64,000 bases of DNA. Origin: a virus (taxonomy: Duplodnaviria > Caudoviricetes). Numbering within the stretch: position 1 is the first letter of the stretch; every line of letters begins with the position of its first letter. Below are positions 33 to 22,998 of the stretch, one piece after another. The notes beneath the pieces were generated by a model. The model was not told the origin of the DNA. It saw only the letters and a list, made by a program, of their open reading frames with translations, and made no database searches. Location: positions 76,646-140,645 of IMG/VR virus record IMGVR_UViG_3300036778_000062. One strand, 5' to 3'. A program made the position numbers and the translations under genes.

Positions 33-2639
33 CTATGGTACAGAAACGATCACGACTCCGGAGCCGCCATTGCCGCCCGGTTGACCACCGCCGCCACCGC
101 CGCCTGTATTCGCGGTGCCGGATACTCCCGGATTTGGATTCGCCTGCGCAGCGCCACCGCCGCATGTCGCTCCGCCGGGGGTCGAACCCGCGCTCGTACC
201 TGCACCGCCGCCACCCGCGTAGCAAACCGACGCGCCGGAAATACTGGACATCAAGCCGGCGCCGCCGCTACCCGCCGTTGTTGTGCTGGGAGCAGCTTGA
301 CCTGCGCCGCCAGCGCCACCACCACCACCGCCTTGAACAAAGCCCAAGAGGTTGTCGCCGCCCTTATTGCCTTGCCCGGCAGTGCCACTCGCGCCCGGTC
401 CAGTAAAGCCGCCGCAAGATCCGCCACCAGACCCACCAACGTTTGGACCAATTCCAGCACCGCAACCTCCACCGCCTCCGATCGCAGTAAAGCCATTGAA
501 TGACGAGTTTGAACCGTTAAGGCCAACGGATCCGCTTGCGCCCGCGCCACCAGCGCCGACGACGACGGGATATGCCCCTGATGTGAGAACTGCCGAGCCG
601 GGCAGCACGCCGCCAGCGCCACCGCCACCACCACCCGCGCCAGCGCCGCCCGCCACGATCAGATAGTTGATCAGGCTTGCGCCGACTTGCTGATAGAACG
701 TTCCGCTCGAATTGAAGACATAGATCGTCGGGCTCGTCAGCGGAGTCCAAGTGATCCTGATGACGCCTTGCTTGGCATCGCCGCCGGGGCCTCCATTGTT
801 GCCAGAACCGCCGCGTCCACCACCGCCACCGCCGCCACCATATCCAAGTGACGCGCCGCCAGCTGCACCGGGAAAAGATCCGGCTCCACCGCCACCACCG
901 CCTCCACCGCCGCCGGTGCCAATTCCTGTTGCAAGATCGCTACCCATCGACCCGGCGCCGCCGTTGGTGCCGGCACCAAGACCGCCGCTTGCGCCGAAGC
1001 CAGCAAATCCACCACCGCCGCCGCCGCCGTTGCTGCCATCCGATCCATTCGAATTGTTGCCACCAGCGCCACCACCGGTGCCGGCCTGATTGTTGCCACC
1101 GCTGCCCCCGATCGCGGTGCCACTGACTTGCGTTTGCCCAGTAGAGCCGCCTCCATTGCCGCCGCCACCGCTGCCGCCATTGGTGCCAACTGTATTGCCG
1201 CCAGCGGCACCAACCCCCAAAGGACCACCAGCGCCTCCGCCGCCGCCACCGCCTGCAGTGGTAAGGCCACCTGTGCCGCCAATGCCGCCGTTGAAATTTG
1301 CGGCAGCACCCGTGCCGCCCGTGCCGCCCGCACCCGCGCCACCGCCGCCGCCGCCATTCGACGCACCAGCGATACCAGCGCCACCACCGTTCGCTGTGCA
1401 TGCGCCCGTGAATGAAGTGCTTGTACCCGCCGTCCCGTTCGTAGCTATCGCACCACCGCTGCCGCCCGTGCCGATGGTGAAAGCAACGCTCGTGCTTGGT
1501 GTCAGACTGACATTAGCCGACTTGCGGTATTCACCACCACCACCGCCGCCGCCCGACGCCGCGCTATTGGTGCCGCCACCACCGCCACCACCGCCACCAC
1601 CAATGCACTCAATCGAATTGTCGCTGTTGTTAAAGTTGAGCGGGACAGTCCAACTGCCCGACGAAGTCAGAAGAACGCTGACTTGCGCCGTATAGGCAAC
1701 GATGACGACACCGGAGCCACCGTTGCCACCTGCTGCTCCTACGACTTGTTGAGAGCCACCACCTCCGCCGCCGCCGGTGTTTGCCGTTCCAGGCGATCCG
1801 GGCTGAGCCGTGCCGCTGATCGAGATGCCGCCTGCACCTCCACCACCTGTACCGCCCGCACCGTTCGTGCTTCCCGCATTGACACCGTTTTGTCCGCCGC
1901 CACCACCACCGCCGTAGGTGAGCGACGTCCCCGTAATGGATGATGCGCATCCATTACCGCCGTTGCCCCCATTGCTGGTTGAAGACCCGGTACCACCATT
2001 GCTGCCAACTGCGTTGCAGCCGCCACCTCCGGACCCGCCTGTATCGGTGGCCGCGCCTTGATCGCCACCTTTGTGGCCAGCAGAACCAGCGCCACCACTG
2101 AGAGGGCCGCCACTCACCCAGCCGGCAGCACCGCCACCGCTCGCGCCGCCAAGGCCATTACCGAATGATCCTCCACCACCGCCGCCGATCGCGGACGCGA
2201 CCCCGGCAATAGATGATGATGAACCGTTCGATCCCGCCACGCTGCTGGAAGAACCACCCGCGCCACCACCACCAATAGTGACGCTGTAAGAGCCGGCAAT
2301 AAGATTTGTCGATCCGGGGTTAACCTGTCCAGCACCACCACCACCACCAGCACCGATGTTTGTCGCCCCGGCACCGCCACCACCACCACCGCCGACAACA
2401 ATATAGTTGACGTTGCCCGAGCCGGTGCATGTCAACGTAGCGCTCGAATTGAAGACATGAATGCGGGTCGCGCCGAAGGCGGAGATAGTGCCGCCCGTGC
2501 ATGAGATATTTTGTGTGCTGCTGCTGAGTTGCGCCATCAGCATGGGTTGAAATGTGCCGGGCATATTGGCCTGCGCGGCGGACAGGAGCGCCAGCCAGGG
2601 CGCGACAACGAACGCGAGAACAGCTCTACGGAACGTCAT
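33..2639 (-). CDS. Glycine-rich phage tail-associated protein (three Gly-rich domains) with N-terminal signal peptide
   Basis: 868 aa; repeated YxxVxGGGGGG...GxNGxxSSF...GGSGVVIV units typical of phage Gly-rich domains; MTFRRAVLAFVVAPWLALLSAAQA leader; 10 Cys. Confidence 0.8.
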   Translation of the reverse strand: MTFRRAVLAFVVAPWLALLSAAQANMPGTFQPMLMAQLSSSTQNISCTGGTISAFGATRIHVFNSSATLTCTGSGNVNYIVVGGGGGGGAGATNIGAGGGGGAGQVNPGSTNLIAGSYSVTIGGGGAGGSSSSVAGSNGSSSSIAGVASAIGGGGGGSFGNGLGGASGGGAAGWVSGGPLSGGAGSAGHKGGDQGAATDTGGSGGGGCNAVGSNGGTGSSTSNGGNGGNGCASSITGTSLTYGGGGGGGQNGVNAGSTNGAGGTGGGGAGGISISGTAQPGSPGTANTGGGGGGGSQQVVGAAGGNGGSGVVIVAYTAQVSVLLTSSGSWTVPLNFNNSDNSIECIGGGGGGGGGGTNSAASGGGGGGGEYRKSANVSLTPSTSVAFTIGTGGSGGAIATNGTAGTSTSFTGACTANGGGAGIAGASNGGGGGGAGAGGTGGTGAAANFNGGIGGTGGLTTAGGGGGGGAGGPLGVGAAGGNTVGTNGGSGGGGNGGGSTGQTQVSGTAIGGSGGNNQAGTGGGAGGNNSNGSDGSNGGGGGGGFAGFGASGGLGAGTNGGAGSMGSDLATGIGTGGGGGGGGGGAGSFPGAAGGASLGYGGGGGGGGRGGSGNNGGPGGDAKQGVIRITWTPLTSPTIYVFNSSGTFYQQVGASLINYLIVAGGAGAGGGGGGAGGVLPGSAVLTSGAYPVVVGAGGAGASGSVGLNGSNSSFNGFTAIGGGGGCGAGIGPNVGGSGGGSCGGFTGPGASGTAGQGNKGGDNLLGFVQGGGGGGAGGAGQAAPSTTTAGSGGAGLMSSISGASVCYAGGGGAGTSAGSTPGGATCGGGAAQANPNPGVSGTANTGGGGGGGQPGGNGGSGVVIVSVP

Positions 2640-2642
2640 GTA

Positions 2643-3938
2643 TCACTTCACATTCTGAAGGAGAGAGGCTGCGCAAAAGTTGACCGTGATGCAGGATCCT
2701 TCGAGTACGTCGACCGCACCAGCTATGGTCGACAGCGTCGGGGTAACGCCTCCGGGAAATTTCAACAGACTGTTCCAGACGGTCGAGCGCCCACCCGTGG
2801 AATCTTGAATAAACCTGATCTGGAATGATTTCCCGACCATAGGCGTGAAGTTCATCGTGGTGATGTTGCCGGTCAGCGTGACAGCCGCGTTGATGAACGT
2901 CGTGGTGTCGATGCTGATGGTCGAACCAAAGGTGATGGTGGCTTCGGCCGAGTAGATCACGCTCGCCGGCACGAGCACACTCGACGCGCCACTCTGATAC
3001 TGCGATCCGGTTGCCACCGCAGCGGTCGCCATATCAGCGAAGGTTACAAGGCCGGCTGCGCTGAACGAGCTGTGAACTGTGAGGCCGCCGCCGCCAGCGC
3101 CGACATCAACCGTCCCGGTCGAACCTCCATTGCCGATAAGAATGATGCCGCTGCCCTTGGCATTGAGCGAAAGATTTTCATTAGTGGCCGTCGATGTCGT
3201 GTTGAGGCCCGTGCCGCTTCCAGCAGCGTTGCCGACGATTTGTAGGCCTGTGGCCTGATTGGTTCTGGAGCCGTCAACAGTGAGCACGGGATTGGTCGCG
3301 CCATTGGCGCCGACCGCGAGCGCGGTCGACGAGTTCGACTGGATGGCTGTCGGTCCCTTCACCGCGAGCACGTTGCCGCCGATCGTCGCGCCGCCAAGCG
3401 AGAGCGATCCGGAGAGCACCGCATTTACGCCGCCGATCGTTCCCGTGAATGTCGGGCCGGCAGTCATCGCGACGCTGCCAGTGCCGGAGATCGTGTATTC
3501 GTCGAGAACACCAGCGTTATCGAAGAGCACACGCGCGCTCGTGCCTCCGATGACGTCAGTGATGCCGACCGTCATAGACGCCGCAGTCGCGGTCAGCAGG
3601 TCGATTGTCGTGCCGTTCACCTGCGCAAAGACGCCGGAAGAAGTCATCCACAGATCGCCATCTGCGGGCTGCGCGGGCGTCGTGCCTGGGGTTAGATTGA
3701 AACCGGCCGTCTGCGCGCCGGGCGGTGCCGTGACAAGCCGCCCGGTCATGATCCCGCCGGCGGTGTTCAGCGGGACGTAACCCAAATCATCCTGCTTGGA
3801 CGCGAAATAGCTATTCCACTGCGCCGCGGTCGGCACCTGACCGTTCTGCAGGTTTGGCGAGGACCCCGCGATCGCTGGCAAGCCAGCAGCCATCGCTAGT
3901 CCGGACGCGAGCGCGACCGACTTCAATAACGTCTTCAT
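2643..3938 (-). CDS. Tail-fibre-like beta-rich protein with signal peptide
   Basis: 431 aa, T/G/A/S rich; C-terminal QDSTGGRS.VW...KFPGG..PTLST..GAVDVL motif seen in phage fibre C-termini; AIA-ending leader. Confidence 0.65.
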   Translation of the reverse strand: MKTLLKSVALASGLAMAAGLPAIAGSSPNLQNGQVPTAAQWNSYFASKQDDLGYVPLNTAGGIMTGRLVTAPPGAQTAGFNLTPGTTPAQPADGDLWMTSSGVFAQVNGTTIDLLTATAASMTVGITDVIGGTSARVLFDNAGVLDEYTISGTGSVAMTAGPTFTGTIGGVNAVLSGSLSLGGATIGGNVLAVKGPTAIQSNSSTALAVGANGATNPVLTVDGSRTNQATGLQIVGNAAGSGTGLNTTSTATNENLSLNAKGSGIILIGNGGSTGTVDVGAGGGGLTVHSSFSAAGLVTFADMATAAVATGSQYQSGASSVLVPASVIYSAEATITFGSTISIDTTTFINAAVTLTGNITTMNFTPMVGKSFQIRFIQDSTGGRSTVWNSLLKFPGGVTPTLSTIAGAVDVLEGSCITVNFCAASLLQNVK

Positions 3939-3951
3939 TTCTGATGATCCG

Positions 3952-4602
3952 TTAGAAGGAAGGCGTCTTCCAGGAACCGATGGTATCGGCGGTTAAGTCC
4001 TCGATGTCGTGGGACGCCTGCGCGGCCGCCCGCTCGATGGCGTCGATCTGCTGGCGCCGCTGCTGTTGATCGTCGAGGAAATGCTGGTCAGATGGAGAGC
4101 GATTCTGACGAATGGCCGCCATCACCTGATCGGGCTTGGTGGTTGCCTTGCTGAACCATCCAAGCTTGTTCATGGCAGCCTGATAGGCATCATTTTCCAC
4201 TTTTGCGAGGTCGTTCTCGCGCATGCCGAACAGGCGCCGCTTTCCGGCTGGCAAAATCTTCGAAATCGCAATCTGCTCGGCATGGTAAAGCAGGCTCAAT
4301 AAATTGAGCTTGGCGGCCGCAAGTGCCTGCTGCGGGTCTGGTGGATCGATCGATGGACTATCGTCGACGATCTCAAAATTTGCTTCGTCATTTTCGTCGA
4401 TAGACTTCTCGATCGCGATGTGGGCGCGTGGCCGCGGATAAGCAATGTGACGCTGGAACGGGGCTAACTCGGAGTTCGCCTCATCCTGCTTTACGCGGCT
4501 CATGTGCGTGCGCCATGCCTTCAACTCAACTGCGTGAGACGCGGCCTTGCCAGCGAAGTCTTCAATGCCAACGATTTCCGAGAGCTTGATCTTATGCTTC
4601 AT
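3952..4602 (-). CDS. Putative tail-fibre assembly chaperone
   Basis: Overlaps the fibre gene stop; helical 216 aa; position typical of a chaperone. Confidence 0.45.
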   Translation of the reverse strand: MKHKIKLSEIVGIEDFAGKAASHAVELKAWRTHMSRVKQDEANSELAPFQRHIAYPRPRAHIAIEKSIDENDEANFEIVDDSPSIDPPDPQQALAAAKLNLLSLLYHAEQIAISKILPAGKRRLFGMRENDLAKVENDAYQAAMNKLGWFSKATTKPDQVMAAIRQNRSPSDQHFLDDQQQRRQQIDAIERAAAQASHDIEDLTADTIGSWKTPSF

Positions 4603-5744
4603 AGCGCAAGGTTCCAAAACGCACCCACAGATCGCTCGACATTGTTGTGTGAGCCATTTCCTGTATTCGTGGATGATACCGATCCAGAGACAGAGCCGCT
4701 GACGGTACCGGAGACGTTCGCGGTCCCCGAAAAGGTGCCGCTAACGCTCGCATTACCTCCTAAGCCGAAGTTGCCCCCGCCGCCGACACCGCCCGAACCC
4801 TGCGTGGCACCGAGAATAACCGCACTGGTCGAACCAGAAATCGACCCGGAGCAACCACCGGACATCGAGCCTGACATCGAACCCGACATCGAACCGGAGG
4901 AGTTAATGCCGGGGATTTGCGAGGCAGCGAGGGTTACAAGATTTCCGCCAAGGATCGACCCGGGCGTGGTGGTGTTGCCGGAGACGACGGTGACGCCATT
5001 CAAAAGTGCAGTTACCCCGCCGCCCATCGTATCTACGCCAATGAGCCCGGTACCTTGAAGCGCCGGCGTCGTAAGTCGTCGGTTGGCTGCGAAATCAGCG
5101 AATGGATTTGCTCCTCGTGCGACCGGTGCTCCGGCGCTGGTTAGAAGAGGGCATTGCGAATTGGAGAATTGCAGCCAAACTGCGCAGAACAAGAAAAACG
5201 TTGAGGCGTTTGCAACGTTAGCGCCGGACGCGGCGTTGCCGACGGTCTGGCCGTTCGCGGTGACGAAGCCGCTTGGATTCAGGGTGGACGAAAACGATGG
5301 AACGGGCGTTCCGCTAACGATCTGCCCGGGCTTCGTGACCCAATTTGCTGCCGCTCCGCTTAGATCGTCCGGGTTCGTCAGGTTGTTGTCGACGGTTGAC
5401 ATCCATTCCTTGCCGAGCACAAGGCCCGAACGCAGCACCGCACCCTTCGGATATCCGCCAATCGCTGAAGCAAAATCGGCGTCATAGCTGTAGCCCATCC
5501 CAGCTTCAGCCCATTGCAGGGCCGCCGAAATCTGCTGGAAGATGCCGTTGAAGTCGGAGCCGAATGGCGGGACGCCGCCGGCAGCGATCGGATCGAAGTT
5601 GAGCGGCACCCATCCATCATGCAGCGAGGCCGCACCGTTCTGGATGCCGATTTGCGAGTCGACGGGAATCGGCCGGATGAATGCGGCGCTGGCGAATTGC
5701 GCCCACAGCACGGGAAACTTGCTGGGGATCGACGTGGAGAGCAT
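4599..5744 (-). CDS. Tail fibre protein
   Basis: N-terminal GGVPPFGSDFNGI...YDADFASAIGGYPKGAVL baseplate anchor, collar-like middle, SGS-repeat tip; follows the DUF2612 gene. Confidence 0.8.
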   Translation of the reverse strand: MLSTSIPSKFPVLWAQFASAAFIRPIPVDSQIGIQNGAASLHDGWVPLNFDPIAAGGVPPFGSDFNGIFQQISAALQWAEAGMGYSYDADFASAIGGYPKGAVLRSGLVLGKEWMSTVDNNLTNPDDLSGAAANWVTKPGQIVSGTPVPSFSSTLNPSGFVTANGQTVGNAASGANVANASTFFLFCAVWLQFSNSQCPLLTSAGAPVARGANPFADFAANRRLTTPALQGTGLIGVDTMGGGVTALLNGVTVVSGNTTTPGSILGGNLVTLAASQIPGINSSGSMSGSMSGSMSGGCSGSISGSTSAVILGATQGSGGVGGGGNFGLGGNASVSGTFSGTANVSGTVSGSVSGSVSSTNTGNGSHNNVERSVGAFWNLAL

Positions 5745-5754: not shown

Positions 5755-6414
5755 TCAGAGAGGTGTCATGACAGCGACGTCCACGCCGGACGGCCGCGGC
5801 AGCACGCCGGACTGTTCGACGATCGCAAGTTCGAGCGGCGATAGGGCGAAATCGAATTTTTGGACCATCGTCATATCGCGGTTGTCGACGACGTAGCAGT
5901 TGCCGCGTCCCGGAAAGAGGCTGCGCAGGATCTGGTTGATGGACTTGATCGAGCCGTCCGTGATGTTGAACAGCGCCTTGGCGAAGATCAGGATCCGGTA
6001 GGAGCTGTCCGCGAGCACGAAGTTGTTCGTCAGCGGCTGGCCTTGGAAGAACGGCGCTTGGCCGAACGGTTGCGAACCAGGTTGCGCCTCCTCCATGCCG
6101 AGATAGATATCGCTCTCTGGGACGCTGAGTGTGCGCGAGACGTTGACGATATCGCCCCAGATGTCGAGGCCATAGCCGACTGCGGTTGCAATGTTGAAAA
6201 TATCGTCAAAGAACGCGGTGATGTTGGATGTCTGGTCGACGCACTGGAAGACGTTGTAGATTAGCTCGATGATGATCGGGCTGTTTGCGTATTGTGAGAT
6301 AACCGTCTTCCAGAAGTCGAAATCCGGAATCGGTCCGATCGGCGAGACGCCGATGATAAACTTGCCGATCGCATTGGATCCCGGTCGCGGCCGGTTAATA
6401 TCCGGCCCGCTCAC
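5755..6414 (-). CDS. Baseplate wedge protein (DUF2612-like)
   Basis: ISQYANSP...TAVGYGLDIWGDIV...LPRPSGV motifs; downstream of baseplate J. Confidence 0.85.
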   Translation of the reverse strand: MSGPDINRPRPGSNAIGKFIIGVSPIGPIPDFDFWKTVISQYANSPIIIELIYNVFQCVDQTSNITAFFDDIFNIATAVGYGLDIWGDIVNVSRTLSVPESDIYLGMEEAQPGSQPFGQAPFFQGQPLTNNFVLADSSYRILIFAKALFNITDGSIKSINQILRSLFPGRGNCYVVDNRDMTMVQKFDFALSPLELAIVEQSGVLPRPSGVDVAVMTPL

Positions 6415-7832
6415 GTTAGGCTCACCTTGATGTTCGTCGCGTTGATCGTCGGCACCTGGTCTATGTTGACCGTGACGTCATTGCGGTTCGCCAACGAACC
6501 GAACATCGTGGTAGAGCTTACGGTCTGCGACACGCTCACCGTCCAGGTCGTGCCGCTTCCGGCGGTGATTACCGTTCCCGGCAGCACGATGCCATCGACA
6601 TCGGAAACCGTCTGGCCGATCGCGACCGCTCCGGAGGCTGTCGCGCTGACGGTCAGCGTCGTGTTGGCGATCGCGCCGGTGAACGTCGCGCTCGAATTAT
6701 TCGATGAGCCGACCTGCAAGGAGATGATCTGCGCCCACGTGCCCAGCGCGATGATCGACGGCGCATAGCGCAGCGAGAATACGGTGGAGCCGATCCGCGC
6801 GCGCTCGCCACCGTCGCCGCCTGCGAACGCGCTGATGATCGCGTTTTGGATCTGGGTGACGGCGTCGGCCGGGACTTGGCTGTTGTTGAGGATAGTGACC
6901 GCGAACAGGATCGGCAGGCCAGACGGCCGTTCGAAAGTGATGTCCCAAGTCGGCAGAGGAGGCGCGTAGAGAGCTGAATCACCGACCACGGTAACGTCGG
7001 TGTTGCCGTTCATGTCGCAGCCGGGGGGCTTCTTGCTCCAGATGGCGGTTGCTACGTCCAAGTCGGTCGCGCCGACCGCGGCGATATAGATCGAATGCGG
7101 GAGCAACGAGACGCCGCCGATAGTCTGGTTGGTGCCCTTTGGATTGTCGGTGACATATGCGTCGAGCACATCCTTGACGCTCAACACCACGCCCATCACC
7201 GCCTCGTTAGTGTTGGACGAGTTGGCCGCGACCGACGCGCGCCGCCGTGCCTCGAATTGTTGCCGGCTCTCGACATTGGCACCGAGCACACCATCGTCTG
7301 GGTTGGTGATGGTGTCCCAGCCGTTGATGGCGCGATATATCTCGGTCAGCGTGCCGGCCGGGCAGGCTATCGGCCCCAACGTCTGATTTGCGAACGTCAG
7401 GCTGATGCTGCCGGTCTCAGGGATCGTGCCGCCATCGGTGCAGGAATAGATGTTGCCCGATATGTCTCGCGCGAGCGAGCCGACCGGAATGAGAACGCCG
7501 GCGCCTCCTGTGCAGGTGCAGCTGACCGTCGTCGGCTCGGATGGATTCCGGAGCAGGAAATAGATAGAACCAATGGCGTCCTGATATCGCCCCGACGCGA
7601 AGTCGGGGTTCATCTGGTTCGATAGCGTGATGAAGCTGTCGTAGGCGGCCGCGATGATTGCGGCGATCGACGACGCTAGCTGGCCTTGCGGCGTTGAGAG
7701 GGACGGATTGAGGCCGCCGCCGAACGCTGCATTGATATCGGCCTGTACGCCAGCGAGGATCTGATCCTGCGTTGGCGCGACAAATCCCTGCGCCGTGAAC
7801 GTGATCGGCGGAACGTTCGTGGTGATCGCCAT
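6411..7832 (-). CDS. Baseplate J/gp47-like protein with C-terminal inserted module
   Basis: TPQGQLASS, G..QDAIG, ES...FE.RR motifs; start taken at MAITTNV. Confidence 0.88.
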   Translation of the reverse strand: MAITTNVPPITFTAQGFVAPTQDQILAGVQADINAAFGGGLNPSLSTPQGQLASSIAAIIAAAYDSFITLSNQMNPDFASGRYQDAIGSIYFLLRNPSEPTTVSCTCTGGAGVLIPVGSLARDISGNIYSCTDGGTIPETGSISLTFANQTLGPIACPAGTLTEIYRAINGWDTITNPDDGVLGANVESRQQFEARRRASVAANSSNTNEAVMGVVLSVKDVLDAYVTDNPKGTNQTIGGVSLLPHSIYIAAVGATDLDVATAIWSKKPPGCDMNGNTDVTVVGDSALYAPPLPTWDITFERPSGLPILFAVTILNNSQVPADAVTQIQNAIISAFAGGDGGERARIGSTVFSLRYAPSIIALGTWAQIISLQVGSSNNSSATFTGAIANTTLTVSATASGAVAIGQTVSDVDGIVLPGTVITAGSGTTWTVSVSQTVSSTTMFGSLANRNDVTVNIDQVPTINATNIKVSLT

Positions 7833-7833
7833 T

Positions 7834-8184
7834 TCAGAAATTCGCAGCCGCTGTGTTGCCGGCCTGATCAAGGATCTGGACCTGCCCGTGAACCTCGCGA
7901 TTGACGATCGAGGTGATGAAGACGTTCGCAGCCTTGACGCCCGGCACTGTCAGAGCGGCAGCGCCGAACTTCGCTTTCATGAGCGAGATATTCGGAGGCT
8001 TGCCGAAAATCTGCTGGAAGTAGGGGATTCCCTGTGTCGTGTCGTACCAAAGCTCGGCCTGGAAGAGCTTGATTGCGCTGGCCGCATCCTGCGCTAGGGA
8101 ATACGGATCGGACGCGACCGCAATATTGCCAGCAGCATCCTTCGTGAGGTCCCAGGTTTGCGGATTGAGCAGAAGCGTCTTCAT
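7834..8184 (-). CDS. Baseplate gp25/GpW-like protein
   Basis: 116 aa, WDLT.D..GNIA...F..ELWYDTT.GIPYF; between spike and J. Confidence 0.75.
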   Translation of the reverse strand: MKTLLLNPQTWDLTKDAAGNIAVASDPYSLAQDAASAIKLFQAELWYDTTQGIPYFQQIFGKPPNISLMKAKFGAAALTVPGVKAANVFITSIVNREVHGQVQILDQAGNTAAANF

Positions 8185-13284: not shown

Positions 13285-15030
13285 TTAGAGGAGAGCGACG
13301 GTGGGCAGCGAGATCGTCTGCACCGCTTCGCCGTCGGTGTAGAAGAACTTCATGGGCGGCGAACCGCGCTGCTGACGCACCTGTGGAGTTGCGGTGCCTA
13401 TGAAGAGATACCAGCCCTGCACCGACAGCGTTGCGGCCACATTCAGGCCACCAGCTGCGGCATTGACGGCGGCTGCCTGTGAGCCCGAAACTGCAACACC
13501 GGCGCTGTACATGCCGAACGTCAGGCCCTGCTGGATGCGGTCCGACAGCGCTTCTTCGATAGTGGTATTGCCGGCCGAGGTGTACGGGATCGCGTTAGTG
13601 TTCTGCCGCAGCGTCATCAAATCGGACTGGAAGCCGTTCGTCAGCCAGATGGCATTGATGAGACTGTCCAGCCAGGTGAAGGCGCCGGAAACTGAGCCGT
13701 CGACGTAGAAGATGAACTCGGCATTCGCGGTGCCGTAGGCACCATAGAAGTTGTAGCCGTTTTCCGACAGATTGTCGGCCACGACTTCGTCGGTGACGCC
13801 GGGGGTCAGGCCCGCCTGAGATCGACCATCGAAGGTGATCCGGCCACCGGGCTGGTCGAAATTTATCGAGGCCGCGGCGCCCGAGACAAACGCTGCAAGA
13901 TTGGTTTCGCTTGGCTGCCAATTGACCGAGCAGCATGCGTAGCCGAGCGCCTTGATCTGTTGACCGAGACAGTTCGGAGCCGGATCTGAGACCGTCGGTG
14001 AGACGTCGCTGTCCGCGACCACGTAGACGAAGCGGTTGCTCTGCCGCGATACCCATTGTGCGAAGGCGAGCCGGACCGTGATTTCGTCCGGCGCATCCGG
14101 ATTGAATGTCGTGAAAAACGTCACCCAATTGCGCTGGTTGCGCACGAGCGCATCCATGAACGGGCTTGGCGTCGCCGCCACAGCACCAGGCGATACGACG
14201 GCGCCGAGGGCCTGCGTCAGCAATAGGTCGGTTGCGAGAGCACCAGAACCGAAGCTGATGGTCGAATCCTCGCCCGCGGTACCGGAGAAGAAAAGGAAGG
14301 CGCCAGACACGCTGTCGAATTGCACCGCCGGCGCATCACCGGTCATCGCCTCGCTGTTCACCGTCTGAGAGGCGTTGACCGAATAGGTGCCTTTGCCGCC
14401 CATTGAGCCGTCGGTCTCGGTGCTCGTGAGCTGCTGCTGGATGAACGTGCCGGCCGTGACGCTTGCGCCGTTGAGGACGACGCCAACGCCAAGCTTGCCT
14501 TCGCCCTCGGTGAAGGCGGTCACGGTTAGCGTGGTCGTCGCGATCGAACAGGTGAACGCTGCAACCTGCACGCCTTCGATGCCAAGCTGGTTCGCGATTA
14601 GCTCGGCCGCGTTCGTGAACGAAGTGGAGCCCGACAGGTTTACGTTTGCGGTTTTCAACGTTCCGTCGATCGTGACGTTGAGCGTACCGCTAAAGCTCTG
14701 CAGCTCCGTCAGCGTCGTGGACGCTGCGATGTTCCCGCCGCGCAGGAAGGCGGCGACATCCTCCTCATTGTACTGCGCCACCTGGAGCGCGCCGGGCTTC
14801 ACGGTCGAGCCGTCGTAACCGGCGAAATAGGTGGTTGCCATTGAGGCTTCTATCGAGGTCGCCCCAAAATACTGGCTGACTGCGTCCGGCGTGTCGAACT
14901 CCTGCACGGTACCGATCGGCACCCGGATGGCATTTGACAGCATCAAACCATTCGTGACGATGGCTGAGCCGCCGGCGGGCAATACGCCCGGCGGGACATC
15001 CACGAGTTTCCTGGCCGGGATTGTGCTCAT
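13285..15030 (-). CDS. Tail sheath protein (DUF3383) with inserted module
   Basis: 581 aa; NGYNFYGAY, WLDS.IN.IWL, IPY...G, R..RGSP...F.YTDG motifs. Confidence 0.9.
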   Translation of the reverse strand: MSTIPARKLVDVPPGVLPAGGSAIVTNGLMLSNAIRVPIGTVQEFDTPDAVSQYFGATSIEASMATTYFAGYDGSTVKPGALQVAQYNEEDVAAFLRGGNIAASTTLTELQSFSGTLNVTIDGTLKTANVNLSGSTSFTNAAELIANQLGIEGVQVAAFTCSIATTTLTVTAFTEGEGKLGVGVVLNGASVTAGTFIQQQLTSTETDGSMGGKGTYSVNASQTVNSEAMTGDAPAVQFDSVSGAFLFFSGTAGEDSTISFGSGALATDLLLTQALGAVVSPGAVAATPSPFMDALVRNQRNWVTFFTTFNPDAPDEITVRLAFAQWVSRQSNRFVYVVADSDVSPTVSDPAPNCLGQQIKALGYACCSVNWQPSETNLAAFVSGAAASINFDQPGGRITFDGRSQAGLTPGVTDEVVADNLSENGYNFYGAYGTANAEFIFYVDGSVSGAFTWLDSLINAIWLTNGFQSDLMTLRQNTNAIPYTSAGNTTIEEALSDRIQQGLTFGMYSAGVAVSGSQAAAVNAAAGGLNVAATLSVQGWYLFIGTATPQVRQQRGSPPMKFFYTDGEAVQTISLPTVALL

Positions 15031-15037: not shown

Positions 15038-15757
15038 TCATGGCGATGGCGGGAAATCGACGTTGTAGAGATCGATGGTCAAGGAGCTTGCGAACTCCTG
15101 CGAGACTGCCACGGTCGGATCGACCTGCAGATGGGCCTCTACAATCCATCGGTCCTCGTATTGAACTGCGGCCGTATTGAATGGCATCTGCCGCGGATCG
15201 TCTGCGTAGAGGGGTGATAGGCCGGTTCCCTCGAGATGTTCGACCGCGAACGGATCTCGGAAGAGGGTCGATATCGTCTGTGCATTCTCGGCTGACGCCG
15301 GCCCGTGCACGTCGATCTGAACCACGACTTCCGTCGGCTGCATCACGATCGCCTGTCCGGCCGAGATAATCGTCGCGGCGACATCCTGCGCCGGAGTCAC
15401 CGCGTAGACGCCGACACCGCCAGGCGTCCCCGAAATCTGCTCTGAGACGGTTGTGCCAATCGCGATGCCGACGCCGAAGACCGTCGCATCGATGTTCATG
15501 ACGCCGCGGATGACGTCGGTGATTGTCATCTGATCGCCGTCGATCGAGCCCTCAAACTCGGCATCGGCCATCGTGTCGAGATTGGTTCCGAGGCGTGGGC
15601 GGCGCAGCGGCCACATCACGATGAAGTCACCTTCTGGGGCGGGCACCCGATTGACCTGTCCGACGACGATCTTGCCCGGCCGGAGCTGCGGTAGCATCGC
15701 TTTCAGCAGATCGCCAAGCGCAATGTTGATGCTGTCCTGGGTGATCGAAATGTTCAT
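15038..15757 (-). CDS. Tail completion/terminator protein with inserted module
   Basis: GQVNRVP.P, QIDVHGP, PLYADDP.Q, QYEDRW motifs; upstream of sheath. Confidence 0.75.
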   Translation of the reverse strand: MNISITQDSINIALGDLLKAMLPQLRPGKIVVGQVNRVPAPEGDFIVMWPLRRPRLGTNLDTMADAEFEGSIDGDQMTITDVIRGVMNIDATVFGVGIAIGTTVSEQISGTPGGVGVYAVTPAQDVAATIISAGQAIVMQPTEVVVQIDVHGPASAENAQTISTLFRDPFAVEHLEGTGLSPLYADDPRQMPFNTAAVQYEDRWIVEAHLQVDPTVAVSQEFASSLTIDLYNVDFPPSP

Positions 15758-16095
15758 CGGTAGAAGAGGGCGTTCACCTTGCCGCCCGAGGTCTGCGAGA
15801 TGAAGCGAAGCGCCGAGATCGTGCCCTCGTAGTTCAGCACCTGACCGACAGCCAGCGGCATGCCAACGGCGGCGGTCGGCGCAGTACGGTCATCACGGTA
15901 GCGAACGGCCTGGCCCTCTGCCGTAATGACGACCATGCTCGGTGTGCCCGCACATGCAGCCGGGATTGTCAGCGGTGTCGCTGTATCGACCGCAACCTGC
16001 TGGTACCCGCAGGGTACCCGGCGGATACCGCTATCGGCGCGCGCGCAGCTCATCGCGAGCGCGATCGTCAGCGCCGCGGTCAATCCTCGAAGCAT
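15754..16095 (-). CDS. Small beta-rich phage protein with signal peptide
   Basis: MLRGLTAALTIALAMSCARA leader; GYQQ...AEGQAVRYRDD.TAPTA.VGMPL core; stop overlaps the next start (ATGA). Confidence 0.7.
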   Translation of the reverse strand: MLRGLTAALTIALAMSCARADSGIRRVPCGYQQVAVDTATPLTIPAACAGTPSMVVITAEGQAVRYRDDRTAPTAAVGMPLAVGQVLNYEGTISALRFISQTSGGKVNALFYR

Positions 16096-16108: not shown

Positions 16109-16504
16109 TTACGATGGGTCTGGGATGTCGTCCTGCAGCACCACAGCAACCTTGCACCAGTCCGCCCATTGCTCCACGGACGCCAGCACCAGCCACGTAT
16201 TGCCCTCTGGAAGGGTGCCGTCAGGGAACACGACCAGATCGCCGCCCAGCTTCTTGATGCGGCTGATCGCAAGTGCGGCGCCGTTCAGATAGATGGCCTT
16301 CTGGGCTCCCTGAACATTGAGGGCGTCGAGCTGGCGGATATCGCCCGAGGTGATGGGCTGAACCTGTGCCTGCACCGGCGCCTTGTCGTAGGTCGGTACC
16401 TGCACATAGTTGACGAGCGTGTATCCGGTGCTGATGAACAGCGTGGCGGCAACGTTTGGGTTAACCGCACGCGTCACGCCGTTGGCTATCGCCCGAAGGT
16501 TCAT
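16109..16504 (-). CDS. Head-closure/neck protein
   Basis: MNLRAIA....AVNP, AQVQP, GGDLV.F, WLV...E.W.DWCKV motifs. Confidence 0.75.
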   Translation of the reverse strand: MNLRAIANGVTRAVNPNVAATLFISTGYTLVNYVQVPTYDKAPVQAQVQPITSGDIRQLDALNVQGAQKAIYLNGAALAISRIKKLGGDLVVFPDGTLPEGNTWLVLASVEQWADWCKVAVVLQDDIPDPS

Positions 16505-16509: not shown

Positions 16510-17112
16510 CTACCGCGGCGCCAGGCAAGCCGTGACGACCAGGTTCGCCGTCGCAGTGGCGGTGCCGGTGAATTTCAGCGCGAGGCGGTCGCCAGCGGCA
16601 AGGGCCACGCTCGCTGCTGTTCCAACGAGCGCGCCGGCCTGAACCGTGTTGGCGGTGGCGTTAAGATTGAAGCCGGCGTTCGTATTGTTGGTCAGGAGAG
16701 CGGTGCCTGAGCCCGGCGCAGTGGTCCCGGTGTCCTTCTCGACCTGCATCGTCTCGGTGGCGCCGGCAGCCGTAGAATGCACCTCACTGACGCTGACGAG
16801 CTTGTAGGGCCTGGTTGCGACGAAGAAAGCCGCATTGGCCGGTGAGGCCAGGGTCCCCATTTGCGCGAAGGTGGTGCAGACCAGACCGTCGGAAGACTTC
16901 AGCGTCGTGAAGTTGCCGGGTGCTGGTGTGGTCCCCCCGATTGTCATGTCGTCGATAGTACCGGGCGTCGCACCATTGCTTTTCGGCGGCGCGATCGGGA
17001 AAGCCAGGTCGCCGATGTTGGTGAAGAAGGTGGTGCTCGCAGCGCGCGCGGCGATCGCAGGCGCGAGCAAGGCGGCAATGACGATCACAACTTTCGTTGT
17101 CACGGTTCGCAT
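16510..17112 (-). CDS. Beta-rich decoration-like protein with signal peptide
   Basis: MRTVTTKVVIVIAALLAPAIAARA leader; IDDMTIGGTTPAPGNFTTL fibre-like motif; jelly-roll-like C-term with 2 Cys. Confidence 0.6.
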   Translation of the reverse strand: MRTVTTKVVIVIAALLAPAIAARAASTTFFTNIGDLAFPIAPPKSNGATPGTIDDMTIGGTTPAPGNFTTLKSSDGLVCTTFAQMGTLASPANAAFFVATRPYKLVSVSEVHSTAAGATETMQVEKDTGTTAPGSGTALLTNNTNAGFNLNATANTVQAGALVGTAASVALAAGDRLALKFTGTATATANLVVTACLAPR

Positions 17113-17129: not shown

Positions 17130-17570
17130 TCAGGATTTCACTTCGAACGAGACGGCGCGGATCATGTCACCGTGCTCGATGAGGGGCTTGTCGAAGCCCT
17201 TGCGCTTGACCGTCGATTCCGCCAGCGGCGGCGAATTCGTTTGCTGGATGCTCATCTGCAGGTCGCTCGCGATCCCTTCGCCAACGCGTTGCAGGGTGAG
17301 GTCCTGATCGTAATCGGTCGCCTTCAGGTTCTCGGCGACCGCGACCGGCCACGTCGACTCCTTCTCCGCGATCATGTTGCGGAAGAAAGGCCGTGGCGGA
17401 ATTTTGCTGGTTCCGAACTCGTTGGCGGCGGCGCGAACGGCGATGGGCTGACCGTCCGGCCCGGTTGCGTTCTCGAGGAAGCCGACGCGGACCGATCCTG
17501 GCCGCGAGAGTTGCTCCGCGATCTGACTGAGCGCCAGCGCGAACTTGTCGCCGCCCTTGATGGTCGCCAT
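17130..17570 (-). CDS. Neck/virion morphogenesis protein
   Basis: VRVGF, A..NEFGT..IPPRPFFR, PLA.ST..RKG.DKPLI..G.M motifs. Confidence 0.85.
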   Translation of the reverse strand: MATIKGGDKFALALSQIAEQLSRPGSVRVGFLENATGPDGQPIAVRAAANEFGTSKIPPRPFFRNMIAEKESTWPVAVAENLKATDYDQDLTLQRVGEGIASDLQMSIQQTNSPPLAESTVKRKGFDKPLIEHGDMIRAVSFEVKS

Positions 17571-19021: not shown

Positions 19022-20122
19022 TCAGATGCCAACCATCGACGAAAAGCCGATTGGCATCCGGATGATGGCGCCAAAGGTGCCAGCCATCTTCTTCTGCTTG
19101 TAGGACGAGGCCGCGCGGATAATCGGAAACGCCTTCAACTTCTCGGTGAAGGAGCAATAGGCTGTCTTCTGCCCTTGGATCTTCTCCGCAATCAGCTGCA
19201 TGAAATTTCCTGCAGGGACGCCCTGCGGGTTGTCGGGTGTCAAAGCGCCGTATTGAACCGCGGTCTGAATGCGGAGATTTGGGAAATTCTTTTTGAGGAG
19301 ATCTTCCACATTGACGTTGAAGGAGTTGGTGAACGTCAGCGCCACCTCCGAACCGGGAGACATCGCGAGCACCATCGGCGTCCTTTTGTTGACGAGACCG
19401 ATGTTGTTCTGGATCAGATTCTCATAGACGGCGACGACGTCGTTGTAGACCTCGTTCGCTGTCGCGTTCGGCGCGCCACTATCGGTAAACCAGGACGTTC
19501 CGCCATTCACCTTCACAGACGGTGCAAGCGGAGCGCCAAGGTTCGGATCATTGAAAAGACCGAAGTTTTCCAGCCCCGCAACGCCGTAGAAGTACGATAG
19601 GTTGCTGAACCTATTGAGGCCGTCGGCCGCAGCAGCCTCGAGACCACTAATCCAGTTTACACGGCCGAGGCCCGCGCGTTCGATTTCGAGGTCGCCGTAT
19701 TCGAGCATCACCTGGAAATTGTACGATTGCCGCTGGGGCCAGTTGGTATTGAGTGAGGCTCGGCCATTCTCATTGAAATCGCCATACGTCGAGACCTCGA
19801 CGGTATGTTCGACGGTCGGGAACATCGCCGTCGATGTGGTCCAATTGCCCTTACGCTCCTCACCTACGATTTCCGCTCCTTCAGTCGGAGCGAACAGGAT
19901 ATCGAAAATATCCGGATCGATGAACGTGGTGAGCCAGGATGGAATGCCGGTGTTCGGATCCGTCTGCAAAGCGGGTTGAGCATCCATCGCGAGATAGTTC
20001 GTCGCGATTGCATCGGTCGCATAGCAGCGAACCGTGTCCAGTAGCGAAACGCCTTTGGATTCGAAGAACTCTTTCTCGGAGGCAAAGGCCTGCATCGCCT
20101 GCTCAAGAGTACCATTGTACAT
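19022..20122 (-). CDS. Major capsid protein (DUF2184 type)
   Basis: LAMDAQP.L.T..N.GIP, KGNWT, YGD, RQSY.FQ, LN.F.N..YFYGVAGL; AAGGAG RBS. Confidence 0.9.
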   Translation of the reverse strand: MYNGTLEQAMQAFASEKEFFESKGVSLLDTVRCYATDAIATNYLAMDAQPALQTDPNTGIPSWLTTFIDPDIFDILFAPTEGAEIVGEERKGNWTTSTAMFPTVEHTVEVSTYGDFNENGRASLNTNWPQRQSYNFQVMLEYGDLEIERAGLGRVNWISGLEAAAADGLNRFSNLSYFYGVAGLENFGLFNDPNLGAPLAPSVKVNGGTSWFTDSGAPNATANEVYNDVVAVYENLIQNNIGLVNKRTPMVLAMSPGSEVALTFTNSFNVNVEDLLKKNFPNLRIQTAVQYGALTPDNPQGVPAGNFMQLIAEKIQGQKTAYCSFTEKLKAFPIIRAASSYKQKKMAGTFGAIIRMPIGFSSMVGI

Positions 20123-20192
20123 GCTAATGCTCCTTCGGCCGAGGAAGGCTCGGCTCAAGTTACGTTTGGTTTGAAGGGAAGGGCGCTCGGGA

Positions 20193-21155
20193 TCAGCCGA
20201 GCGGGTGATCGCTGATCTTGACGAGCTCGGTGGACAGGCCGGGGCTCATCGCGGACCACTTGGTTTCGACATCGAGCGCGGTATTGATCGCCTGACCGGG
20301 CGTTATCGACTGCGTCAGGTTGACGATGTAGGTACCAGCGGCGCCGGTGCCGGTGCCGAGGTCTGTAATCACGGTGCCATCACTGATCCCGCTGCCGTTG
20401 GCCGGCTGACCGACTGCGAACGTGCCTGCTACGGTGCCGCCGATTGTCATGAGACCATAGCTGCCGGTCATAGCTTCCGTGTCGATATCCTGCTCGGAGA
20501 GATTGAGCGCGTAGCGGCCGGCACCGCGCAGCGCTTCGCCATCCTGCAGGGGCAGCACCTGGTTAACGATGTGGGCGCCCGTCGGAACGCCAGAGCCCGC
20601 GACCACGGTACCGTTGTAGAGCGTACCGGTGACAGCCGAAGCGGTCAGGATGTTCCCCTCGATCGAACCAGTGAAGGAGCTGGTTTCGGCAGCGATCGTG
20701 GAGGAGGTCGATGTACCGCCGGAATCCGGAGCGCCAGCCGGCCCAAAGCGGACCGAGCCATCCTGGAAGTTGGCGTAAGCCTTCATGCCGATCAGCGCCT
20801 GGTTAGAGCCGGCGTTCTTTACGACAAAGTCGCCGCCGTTCATCAGCGTGATTGGCTGGCCGGCCGGCACGAGCATGCTGGATTCTTGCAGATACTGCGT
20901 AAGCATGCCCTGCTGTTCGCGGTGGACGAACCCGGTCACGGGCCCGGAGCCGAAGTTGTTCACGACGGCCGGACCGCCGACATCGTCTTCGTGCTGGTCG
21001 GCTGCCCAAGCAAACCGCGCAACTCGTACGCCGAAGTCGCCACAGACGAAGGCGCCGGCGCCGGCGATCACAGAAAAGCGCGGGTTGGCGCTTGCGAAAT
21101 CACCTTCTACGCCGATCGCCGGCTGAACGGTGACCCTGGTTTGAAAGCCGCCCAT
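20193..21155 (-). CDS. Capsid decoration/cement protein with two inserted modules
   Basis: FQT.V..QPA.GVEGDFASANP, GFVHREQQ, ETKW; between DUF2213 and capsid. Confidence 0.8.
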   Translation of the reverse strand: MGGFQTRVTVQPAIGVEGDFASANPRFSVIAGAGAFVCGDFGVRVARFAWAADQHEDDVGGPAVVNNFGSGPVTGFVHREQQGMLTQYLQESSMLVPAGQPITLMNGGDFVVKNAGSNQALIGMKAYANFQDGSVRFGPAGAPDSGGTSTSSTIAAETSSFTGSIEGNILTASAVTGTLYNGTVVAGSGVPTGAHIVNQVLPLQDGEALRGAGRYALNLSEQDIDTEAMTGSYGLMTIGGTVAGTFAVGQPANGSGISDGTVITDLGTGTGAAGTYIVNLTQSITPGQAINTALDVETKWSAMSPGLSTELVKISDHPLG

Positions 21156-21244
21156 TGAGTGTTCCTTTCAGGGGTAAAACGGGGTTGTCGCCGGCCGCGG
21201 TTCGCCGCCGGCGGTGTTCGACGTTTGGATGATGGGGAAACCTG

Positions 21245-22711
21245 TTAGGCGCTGACCTTGATGCTGGCCGCGTGTGGGAAGCGCGCGGCCAGGCTCTTGG
21301 CGACCGCGGCGTCAGTCGCGATCGGCGGCCTCGGCGGTGGGTTGCCGTTGCCCGGCTGCTTATGGGAACGCAACACTGCCTTGGCGGCTGGAATGCTGTC
21401 GATCTTGTCGGCATCTTCGACACCGAGCACACCGAGGGCAGCCTGATAGACGCTGATCGCGCTATCGAAGGCGCCCTTAAGAGTGCCGACATACGGCCTG
21501 ACTTCCTCGCGGGCGTCCACGGCGGCCTGCACGCGATCGCGCTCGGCTTTGACCGCGGCGCTGATCGCCTGGTCCATGGCCTTCTTGTCGACCATGTCCT
21601 TGGTCTTCTCGGCAACAGCCTTCTCGACATCGCCCGCCATCTTCTCCTCGGCCTCCTTCGCCTTGCGCTTCTTCTCTTCGTCGTCTTCCTCGTCATCCTC
21701 ATCGGCGGCGCCTCGCGGACCGGCCTTGAGCATGTCGCAGGCCTTCAGGTAGTCATCCTCGCCGAGCTTGCCCTTGAGGAAAGCGTGGATGTCGGACTCG
21801 CCGCCCTCGGCGTCCATCGTCTCTTCCGGCATATCCTCGACGTCGATCTCGTCATCACCTTCCGCGATCGGGGCCTTTTCCAAGGCATCGATCAGGCCGG
21901 CGACGTCCTCGATCGAGGCGTCAGCCGCAAGCTTGCCCTTGGTCGCGGTCTTGATGCCGGCAATGATTGTCGGTTTCTGCGTGGCGAAATTCTTGGCCGT
22001 CAGCTTCGCCAGGATCGTTCGAAGATCGACCTTGGCGTCAAGAGCCAGGCGCGGAGCGAGGTGGAGGGCGATGACGCTGCGGACAGCGGCACCGGTACGC
22101 GTCATCTTAACTTTCGCCATCTTGATGGTCTCCATGGTGTCGCCGACCACAACATCGGGTCCGGCTCGTCCTTCTTTCACAAGCGCAACGTGATTGCCGA
22201 CAATGTCTCGCATGACGCCGTCGTATTCCTCGCCGTCGGGCGTGTGGCCCGGCGTCATGTCAGCGCGATAGCGGTACGCGCTCGACAATTCCTTTTTCAG
22301 CTCATCCTCGATATCGCCGATGCCTTCGCCGGCCCAGACGACCAGCGAATTGTCGAGGTAGGGCGCGTCGAACTCGGAGTCGGTACCGAGGGACCCGATC
22401 ACGAGCTCAGGCCTGTGGTCGCGCGCATCGACCGGGACATGGCGGGAGAGCAGCGGCAGGTTATTGAAAGTCTCTGCCGCTTTCTTCAATTCGTCCGGAT
22501 GCCGCCAGAGCTTATAAAGCTTGCGAGGATCAAGCCCCAGCTTTTCGAACTCAGGAATCTCGACGCCGAGATATTCGCAGACGTTTGCCTTCGAGATGTG
22601 CGTCTTCGCAACATGCAGGCGACCGTCGGCGTCATAGTTGCGCACTGACGCGCGGTCGAAGGCGAGGATCTCGCGCGCATCGAATGCGGGGTGCGGCGAT
22701 ACGCCCGACAT
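21245..22711 (-). CDS. Prohead protease/scaffold (DUF2213)
   Basis: DGRLHV...ISKANV..Y.G.EIP, KELSSAYRY, NHVALV..GRAGPDV; acidic scaffold C-term. Confidence 0.92.
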   Translation of the reverse strand: MSGVSPHPAFDAREILAFDRASVRNYDADGRLHVAKTHISKANVCEYLGVEIPEFEKLGLDPRKLYKLWRHPDELKKAAETFNNLPLLSRHVPVDARDHRPELVIGSLGTDSEFDAPYLDNSLVVWAGEGIGDIEDELKKELSSAYRYRADMTPGHTPDGEEYDGVMRDIVGNHVALVKEGRAGPDVVVGDTMETIKMAKVKMTRTGAAVRSVIALHLAPRLALDAKVDLRTILAKLTAKNFATQKPTIIAGIKTATKGKLAADASIEDVAGLIDALEKAPIAEGDDEIDVEDMPEETMDAEGGESDIHAFLKGKLGEDDYLKACDMLKAGPRGAADEDDEEDDEEKKRKAKEAEEKMAGDVEKAVAEKTKDMVDKKAMDQAISAAVKAERDRVQAAVDAREEVRPYVGTLKGAFDSAISVYQAALGVLGVEDADKIDSIPAAKAVLRSHKQPGNGNPPPRPPIATDAAVAKSLAARFPHAASIKVSA

Positions 22712-22725
22712 AGTTATCCTCGCGG

Positions 22726-22998
22726 CTATTTCGCTGGCTTGGTGGTGGTCTTTTCGTCGAGAGTCGATTTATCTGCGGCGGCCTTATCGGCCGCCGCTTT
22801 GGCGTCTATGGCGTTGAGTTGCTGCTGAAGGATCGTCAGCACGGGCGCGGACGTCTTGTAGGGCAGCTCCATCAGGCCCTGGCCGATGATCTGCAGCTCC
22901 GCGCGCGTCACGTCGAGTTTGAGATGATCCGTTGGGGTCTGTGCAATCGCACTGCCTGCCCCGACGAACATAAGTAATGCCACAAGCAAGATTCTCAT
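22726..22998 (-). CDS. Small phage protein with signal peptide
   Basis: MRILLVALLMFVGAGSAIA leader; L.ELPYK.SAP helical core; AAGGA RBS. Confidence 0.65.
   Translation of the reverse strand: MRILLVALLMFVGAGSAIAQTPTDHLKLDVTRAELQIIGQGLMELPYKTSAPVLTILQQQLNAIDAKAAADKAAADKSTLDEKTTTKPAK

Follow-up and report, generated by a model that had tools for sequence, protein, structure and literature searches.

Background

In the textbook account, tailed phages are assembled entirely in the cytoplasm. Decoration proteins such as lambda gpD and T4 Soc and Hoc bind finished capsids and can be added in vitro, and the Gly-rich adhesins of the T-even gp38 type are encoded by a gene that follows gp37. The exported proteins of tailed phages include lambda Lom and Bor, T5 Llp, which masks or saturates the receptor FhuA, phi80 and N15 Cor, the Rz/Rz1 spanins and the signal-arrest-release (SAR) or Sec endolysins. 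The MAT fibres of Bdellovibrio bacteriovorus combine a signal peptide, a conserved N-terminal domain, a variable trimeric fibre and interchangeable phage-like tips (Caulton et al. 2024, PMC10769870), and in Porphyromonas phages, genes with leaders have been interpreted as modifying the host surface (PMC10367356). In this study we analysed five genes with predicted Sec leaders, here called P1 to P5, that lie among the structural genes of a tailed phage. They are encoded in a stretch of 64,000 nucleotides (the window), which is the final 64 kb of the 140,645-bp IMG/VR virus record IMGVR_UViG_3300036778_000062 (positions 76,646 to 140,645), and belong to a late operon of 30 late genes running on the minus strand from 28526 to 33.

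Sequence comparison indicates that the five proteins very probably fold in the periplasm and not in the cytoplasm, where the particle is built. By the same comparison four of them, P1 to P4, resemble outer parts of the virion, and P5 does not. We tentatively hypothesize, at somewhat under an even chance, that these are periplasm-matured add-on virion parts that join the particles at lysis. Our literature search turned up no paper in which tail-fibre or capsid-decoration orthologues of tailed phages bear Sec leaders.

Results and discussion

Five late genes begin with a predicted Sec leader

An earlier note on this DNA had singled out five open reading frames (ORFs). All five are present on the minus strand, with ATG starts at 2639, 3938, 16095, 17112 and 22998:

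33..2639, minus strand: P1, 868 aa, 38.6% Gly; leader residues 1-24 (MTFRRAVLAFVVAPWLALLSAAQA, ending AQA, with N at +1), then three Gly_rich_2 domains (PF21722, phrog_2295)
2643..3938, minus strand: P2, second tail fibre, 431 aa; leader residues 1-24 (MKTLLKSVALASGLAMAAGLPAIA, ending AIA, with G at +1)
15754..16095, minus strand: P3, 113 aa; leader residues 1-20 (MLRGLTAALTIALAMSCARA, ending ARA, with D at +1); mature part begins DSGIRRVPCGYQQ; Cys29/Cys48 pair
16510..17112, minus strand: P4, 200 aa; leader residues 1-24 (MRTVTTKVVIVIAALLAPAIAARA, ending ARA, with A at +1); extended conserved N-segment STTFFTNIGDLAFP...PGTIDDMTIG.TTP
22726..22998, minus strand: P5, 90 aa; leader residues 1-19 (MRILLVALLMFVGAGSAIA, ending AIA, with Q at +1); core LKLDVTRAELQIIGQGLMELPYKTSAPVL; no Cys; low-complexity tail

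To score leaders we used a rule-based test in which the n-region must have a net positive charge, the h-region must be uncharged, span 9 residues or more and average a Kyte-Doolittle hydropathy of 1.6 or higher, the residues at -3 and -1 must be small, and +1 must not be Pro. Among the 30 late genes scored, exactly P1 to P5 obtained scores of 5.2-7.3; the other 25 gave a single weak match (3.5), on the primary tail fibre. By this test all five have the marks of a Sec signal peptide for signal peptidase I, in which a basic n-region precedes an uncharged, hydrophobic core some 10-18 residues long and small residues stand at -3 and -1. Leaders are confined to proteins of peripheral type in this set, and the capsid, portal, tube, sheath and hub proteins have none. 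A Shine-Dalgarno-like sequence precedes the leader ATG in P3, P4 and P5 and is weak in P1 and P2.

The tight packing described in the earlier note holds for P1 to P4, which are separated from their neighbours by gaps of 3-17 nt; P5 has a gap of 655 nt upstream. The ATGA overlap between the P3 stop and the start of the next gene is real, and that gene is the neck/tail terminator (PF23961). The mature cysteine counts of P1 to P5 are 10, 2, 2, 2 and 0, those of P1 to P4 in agreement with the earlier note.

By inspection, none of the five carries at the end of its h-region a lipobox ([LVI][ASTVI][GAS]C), the mark of lipoprotein leaders of the Llp, Cor or o-spanin type. The AMSC followed by ARA in P3 does not fit that motif, and P3 homologues have their predicted cut at A-x-A before D. 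A lipoprotein receptor blocker was rejected on this ground. The P1 leader (window positions 2568-2639, minus strand; MTFRRAVLAF...) is the only one of the five with an RR pair (TFRRAVL). Leaders of the twin-arginine translocation (Tat) route combine a long n-region with an S/T-R-R-x-F-L-K motif and an h-region of weak hydrophobicity. The P1 leader is short (24 aa) and strongly hydrophobic (mean hydropathy 2.24). P1 could be a Tat substrate despite this short and very hydrophobic leader.

Leaders are conserved in layout and go with paired cysteines

The leader residues vary among homologues in the P2 to P5 families while the basic, hydrophobic and A-x-A parts are kept, and in the P2 and P3 families conservation begins at the predicted cleavage site. 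Chance hydrophobic starts were rejected on the specificity of the test together with this conservation across homologues, and mis-called starts because the leaderless forms are separate orthologues and not internal starts; composition could not yield such a pattern either. The earlier note had pointed to phage proteins that have cores of these kinds without leaders. Such leaderless cores were found for P2, P3, P4 and P5, as well as for the domain family of P1. It had also proposed comparing leader presence with cysteine gain, and this comparison shows that in the P2, P3 and P4 families leader-bearing members have even cysteine counts and leaderless members mostly do not.

The second tail fibre P2 illustrates both points. 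Its conserved mature N-domain (GSSPNL..GQVPTAAQWNSYFAxKQD..., about 100 aa) ends near residue 125 and is followed by a shaft that varies and by a tip domain, also about 100 aa long, that carries Cys416/Cys422. A leader is present in 41 of 46 homologues, and 36 of these 41 have an even cysteine count of at least two. The five leaderless homologues start with M-GSSPN (four) or MGV (P0223), which is the predicted mature residue. Leaderless orthologues in loci L069 and L071 occupy the same slot in the same baseplate family and have the same N-domain, so the N-domain appears to work by either route. P2-type genes are found past the fibre, or in the interval from Baseplate_J to Wedge1, in about 20 loci, and are often followed by a second leader protein.

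Residues ~300-430 of P2 match tail fibre or minor tail proteins in 13 cultured-phage records, and the tip matches include annotated fibres of Caulobacter phage S2B, Bradyrhizobium phage BDU-MI-1 and Curtobacterium, Arthrobacter and cyanobacterial phages. All matches in cultured phages begin past the leader, and none combines the P2 leader with the P2 N-domain. Proteins that dock on something conserved usually show a constant N-terminus ahead of distal parts that vary, and P2, like P4 below, may be such a protein. A complex prediction of P2 residues 25-130 with Wedge1 and the primary-fibre N-domain scored 0.00; it was run without controls and counts neither way. As a separate observation, sulfotransferase-like and GT2 glycosyltransferase genes, possibly surface-polysaccharide modification genes, lie shortly past the fibres of one relative (L071:11493-13672), with one small gene between.

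The primary tail fibre of some relatives carries a leader

The phage also has a primary tail fibre, which lies directly after a baseplate wedge gene:

4599..5744, minus strand: primary tail fibre, leaderless in this phage; N-domain residues 1-137
5755..6414, minus strand: baseplate wedge protein (Phage_Wedge1, similar to gpI of phage P2; phrog_587, with PF11041 on an orthologue), directly before the primary fibre

The N-domain of this fibre is the fibre N-domain annotated in Bcep781, GF-2, Aeromonas 56 and many other cultured myophages. Across 80 related loci, the primary fibre has an in-frame leader directly before the N-domain in 18, and the leader starts between -4 and +26 nt from the Wedge1 stop. 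In at least nine of these loci no leaderless product can start at +1, because the +1 codon is CTT, CTC, ATA or ATC. All 17 distinct leader-bearing primary fibres have an even cysteine count. At one conserved position a cysteine is found in 15 of these 17, compared with none of 56 leaderless fibres, 47 of which have Gly there.

Five loci have leaders on both fibres. Two relatives have the fibre N-domain in a single copy, on the leader-bearing gene: G303, with direct terminal repeats and 100% complete, and G304, 92% complete. A phage that exports its only baseplate fibre can regain it only outside the cytoplasm; otherwise it has no fibres. These relatives lend indirect support to the proposed addition of exported proteins to particles at lysis.

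P4, a putative cement-like jelly roll in the neck module

The C-terminal domain of P4 is a jelly roll that carries Cys79/Cys196. The family comprises 487 homologues; in the 120 of them that were listed, the leader is standard in 72 and long in 22. Exactly two cysteines occur in 86 of these 94 leader forms and none in 15 of the 26 leaderless forms (Fisher p 5e-12, uncorrected for shared descent). The best solved structure matching P4 is the cyanophage Pam1 capsid entry 7EEL chain H, a weak match (E 1.9e-3, TM 0.35-0.45), followed by the Ena and ExsFA spore appendage proteins and a tail-needle knob. Matches among viral models include the ends of collagen-like and tail-fibre proteins. By sequence, the P4 profile matched no solved chain.

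Leaderless relatives of P4 follow the major head protein at a distance of one or two genes (L004, L007, L008), while P4 itself is in the neck module. The Neck1/head-completion slot holds a leader protein in four loci, with the leader and the mature N-arm (NTTFFTSIGDLVFPF...PGTIDNMTIG.TTP) conserved and the C-domain variable. The contexts of two further homologues (P0153, P0176) have almost no annotation.

The long-leader homologues (22 of the 120; for example P0068, P0069, P0072, P0076 and P0078-P0080) have their hydrophobic stretch too far in for the standard test. Most have an extra basic segment, RFRLLD-like in several, before the hydrophobic stretch and the A-x-A, giving an N-terminus of about 35-55 aa. 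These long N-termini could be a long n-region, a signal anchor or an upstream mis-start. Two leaderless proteins (L005:5302-6750 and L012:5356-6717) have three tandem P4-type jelly-roll domains per chain, resembling single-chain pseudo-trimers. That some relatives hold three copies in one chain suggests that single P4 copies form a trimer.

P3, P1 and P5

P3 is predicted to fold as an eight-stranded jelly roll (predicted local distance difference test, pLDDT, 90). A leader is present in 44 of 56 homologues, 43 of these 44 have two cysteines, and conservation in the family starts at A-x-A followed by DSGIRRVPCGYQQ. The cysteine pair accompanies a small insertion, which the leaderless forms lack. 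Leaderless relatives lie between portal and scaffold in podovirus-like contigs. Nine related loci, in which the neighbouring structural proteins are 25-83% identical, keep the order head-completion protein, P3, terminator, sheath; one further related locus has P3 out of place. Fold searches with P3 returned generic jelly-roll and cupin matches only; the best, the PM2 P1 spike (Z 7.8), is within the common range. A tblastn search of 50,697 deposited phage genomes gave no match to P3 or P4, and the P3 and P4 profiles are unrelated (hhalign probability 12%).

P1 matches Gly_rich_2 (PF21722) over three stretches with 112.8 bits, for a cut-off of 24.3 (E 3e-32). Its cysteines fall in neighbouring pairs, as the earlier note observed, and the ten of them form five such pairs: 47/71, 208/231, 345/414, 726/742 and 806/826. 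Gly_rich_2 also forms the distal part of the leaderless primary fibre of relative L069. A pattern scan of IMG/VR found no close relatives of P1. The protein has no recognisable docking segment after its leader.

P5 has a conserved core of about 45 aa. The leader is present in 72 of 102 cluster representatives, and the shortest forms start at the conserved core. In the protein atlas its relatives are unnamed viral clusters only. The earlier note had suggested a chaperone role for P5; nothing supports this for a small Cys-free protein with a core of this size located after a 655-nt gap. The gap (22999-23653) separates P5 from the MuF-like gene and might hold a promoter for P5. Its sole ORF is weak (103 aa, GTG start, 23215-23526, minus strand), and the MuF-like/P5 slot is variable in relatives L028-L030.

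Taken together, the homologue comparison, in which leader conservation was followed in P2 to P5, strongly supports the earlier proposal of export, and we consider export of the five proteins highly probable. Disulfide folding, the second part of that proposal, draws support for the four Cys-bearing proteins from the link between leaders and even cysteine counts, and oxidative folding is likewise well supported as a prediction.

A proposed two-compartment assembly route and the evidence against it

From leader architecture, cleavage boundary, cysteine link, synteny and leader switching, all provided by the comparison of homologues, we infer actual export, disulfide formation and docking after lysis. 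The five proteins would be Sec substrates cut by signal peptidase I, and their genes would be expressed as part of the late operon, along with those for head, neck and tail. P2 (a fibre), P1 (Gly-rich and adhesin-like), P4 (a cement-like jelly-roll knob on an N-terminal arm) and P3 (a small jelly roll) would be peripheral virion parts, of the kind added after core assembly. P1 to P4 would fold and oligomerise in the periplasm, where their cysteine pairs would be oxidised, while the core particle, including the leaderless primary fibre and the leaderless cement, would be built in the cytoplasm. The downstream lysis cassette would then breach the inner membrane, the cytoplasmic and periplasmic pools would mix, and the conserved mature N-segments would dock, that of P2 on the baseplate and that of P4 on the head or neck. 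P5 would be a small exported protein to which this scheme assigns no role. It may be, although the balance is slightly against it, that two-compartment assembly is shared by a large group of soil myophages, most of them uncultured prophages in Alphaproteobacteria of the Bradyrhizobium type. Heads, tails and baseplates would be made in the cytoplasm, while fibres, adhesins and some decorations of the head or neck would pass through Sec and be attached at lysis, and in some of these phages even the sole primary fibre would take the Sec route.

Several observations weigh against late joining of the particle. The statistics relating leaders to cysteines ignore shared descent, and in the primary fibres the association amounts to some 2-4 events, because 15 of the 17 form one clade. 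The fold matches of P3 and P4 are to generic jelly rolls (Z 7.8; Foldseek E 2e-3). In related loci the P2 N-domain is 60-88% identical where Baseplate_J is below detection; being better conserved than the baseplate proteins, it could also have a conserved partner in the host. Because the phage's own primary fibre and cement are leaderless, P1 to P4 may not be needed for a complete particle. The neck slot also collects accessory genes for secreted products that are clearly not structural: in one relative (L027:3154-5556) a predicted exported glycosidase of 800 aa, in which a leader is combined with GH5 cellulase and arabinofuranosidase-like domains, is encoded upstream of P3, where the head-completion gene would lie. 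Finally, P5 has no virion-like relatives and follows a long gap.

Alternative fates of the exported proteins

In a second reading, close to the released adhesins or decoys that the earlier note gave as an alternative, the proteins are exported and disulfide-bonded and never join the particle. They would be free agents on the host envelope or in its surroundings late in infection, able to mask or saturate the receptors of debris and nearby cells in the manner of T5 Llp, to bind or loosen exopolysaccharide for the escape of progeny, or to serve as decoys derived from virion parts. The receptor-binding type of the domains related to P1, P2 and P4, the exported GH5 glycosidase in the same region of a relative, the leaderless fibre and leaderless cement that this phage already has, the conservation of the P2 N-domain above that of the baseplate proteins and the missing docking segment of P1 would all fit such a role. 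Free agents, however, would have no need of a docking N-domain that is conserved ahead of variable distal parts, as it is in P2 and P4. The same slot also houses leaderless orthologues that share the N-domain, and the leader on the only primary fibre of some relatives would make a mere decoy only if those phages had no fibres. We regard free agents as a less probable alternative.

It is improbable that the five are lysogenic-conversion genes whose products are displayed on or in the lysogen envelope, in the manner of MAT fibres, for adhesion or superinfection exclusion. The architecture is that of MAT fibres, in which a leader and a conserved N-domain precede a variable fibre with its tip (PMC10769870), published work has taken exported phage proteins to modify the host surface (PMC10367356), and the long gap upstream of P5 could hold a promoter of its own. 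Against this, P1 to P4 lie within 3-17 nt of flanking structural genes, with the ATGA overlap at P3, and between 14.5 and 24.5 kb no promoter-like or terminator-like consensus sites were found above shuffle expectation. The codon-position GC (guanine plus cytosine) of the P2 and P4 genes is like that of their neighbours, and P2 to P4 are syntenic core members in relatives and not sporadic. Because of these gaps, the absence of excess promoter or terminator sites and this synteny, P1 to P4 would not be classed as morons, which have their own promoter and terminator, sporadic occurrence and deviant composition. Leaderless orthologues, moreover, could not be displayed on a surface.

That the N-termini are not export signals at all but chance Ala/Leu-rich starts in a GC-rich genome, wrong start codons or uncleaved inner-membrane anchors is very improbable: the unusually long N-termini of 22 of the 120 listed P4 homologues could be signal anchors and the P1 leader has its RR pair, but only 5 of 30 late genes pass the leader test, hundreds of homologues share the layout and differ in their residues, the conserved part of P2 and P3 sets in at A-x-A and leaderless P2 forms start at +1, leaders co-occur with even cysteine counts, and Shine-Dalgarno-like sequences precede the leader ATG of P3, P4 and P5, if weakly in P1 and P2. 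The remaining probability belongs to mixed fates among the five proteins.

Genome setting and host

The phage is a myophage of the XM1/E217/Pam3 type, and its late operon is arranged as follows, in the order of transcription:

5' part, minus strand: terminase, portal, MuF-like protein, P5, DUF2213 protease/scaffold, cement (PF23982/PF22758), major head protein
neck part, minus strand: four head-neck genes (the last is tail-completion/Neck1), P4, head-completion protein, P3, neck terminator (PF23961)
tail part, minus strand: sheath, tube, chaperone, tape measure
baseplate part, minus strand: baseplate proteins including hub, sheath initiator, Baseplate_J, Wedge1
3' end, minus strand: primary tail fibre, 221-aa protein, P2, P1

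Individual genes of this operon that bear on P3 and P4 are:

15038..15757, minus strand: neck/tail terminator (PF23961), its ATG overlapping the P3 stop
17130..17570, minus strand: tail completion/Neck1 protein (phrog_222), upstream of P4
20193..21155, minus strand: capsid cement/minor capsid protein (PF23982, PF22758), leaderless

Since the leaderless protein at 20193..21155 matches cement families, a conventional cement is present besides P4. The head-completion gene (minus strand) probably starts with the ATG at 16504 (MNLRAIANG, as in relatives) and not with the TTG at 16528; if this is right, it does not overlap the P4 stop.

Four proteins of the window have in common a beta-rich module of about 70 aa, recognised by tblastn cross-matches and by PHROG matches in common (phrog_38233, phrog_21413):

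15038-15757, minus strand: terminator, module at residues 64-134
13285-15030, minus strand: sheath, module at residues 155-228
20193-21155, minus strand: cement, module at residues ~228-287
6411-7871, minus strand: Baseplate_J, module at residues 391-465

A P4 homologue with 56% identity is a hypothetical protein of Bradyrhizobium sp. LjRoot220. A GTDB scan with P2 gave one confirmed locus, in an uncultured alphaproteobacterial metagenome-assembled genome (MAG); when 301 genomes of the order of that MAG were searched with P2, 11 matches were obtained, 9 of them to the C-terminal part only. The LjRoot220 homologue and the single GTDB match point to a Bradyrhizobium-type diderm as host, and the phage is a prophage of a Bradyrhizobium-type soil bacterium.

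Significance and comparison with known systems

If outer virion parts are routinely sent through the periplasm, particles could carry disulfide-stabilised receptor-binding gear beyond what a reducing cytoplasm makes, their infectivity would depend on host Sec, LepB and Dsb functions, and lysis would be an assembly step. Annotation pipelines that equate a signal peptide with 'not structural' would mislabel host-range determinants, and engineered fibres of soil phages might need periplasmic expression. If the proteins stay free instead, they would represent a large undescribed class of late, secreted phage proteins derived from virion parts. What appears new, on the comparison of homologues, is the occurrence of leaderless P2 orthologues that start at the mature residue in the same slot, together with the leader on the primary fibre of related loci.

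The closest known counterparts are the leaderless tail fibres of myophages of the Bcep781, Edwardsiella GF-2, Aeromonas 56, E217 and Pam3 types. These phages share the gene order Pam3_gp18, E217_GP41, Apex, Sheath_initiator, Baseplate_J, Wedge1, fibre, and a primary fibre with the same N-domain. Their fibres are leaderless, whereas here the second fibre has a leader of cleavable type and cysteine pairs, as does the primary fibre in 18 of the 80 loci, all uncultured. Among capsid proteins, the Pam1 entry 7EEL chain H weakly resembles the jelly roll of the P4 C-domain, and leaderless P4 relatives stand just past the major head protein. P4 differs from capsid cement and decoration proteins in its leader, its two cysteines, its conserved N-arm and its position in the neck module.

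T-even gp38 is, by description, similar to P1, which has three Gly_rich_2 domains and a gene that follows a fibre gene. Unlike gp38, P1 has a leader, ten paired cysteines and no recognisable docking segment. The exported phage proteins known to date are likewise phage-encoded, use the host Sec pathway and in some cases lie among tail genes. They are envelope, lysis or exclusion proteins or lipoproteins and not orthologues of fibre or decoration proteins, whereas the proteins described here have no lipobox, and P2 to P4 are syntenic and translationally coupled to structural genes. MAT fibres share with P2, by architecture, the leader, the conserved N-domain and the variable fibre with its tip. 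They are encoded by chromosomal genes of a predator and shown on its own surface, in contrast to P2, which lies inside a phage baseplate module and has leaderless orthologues.

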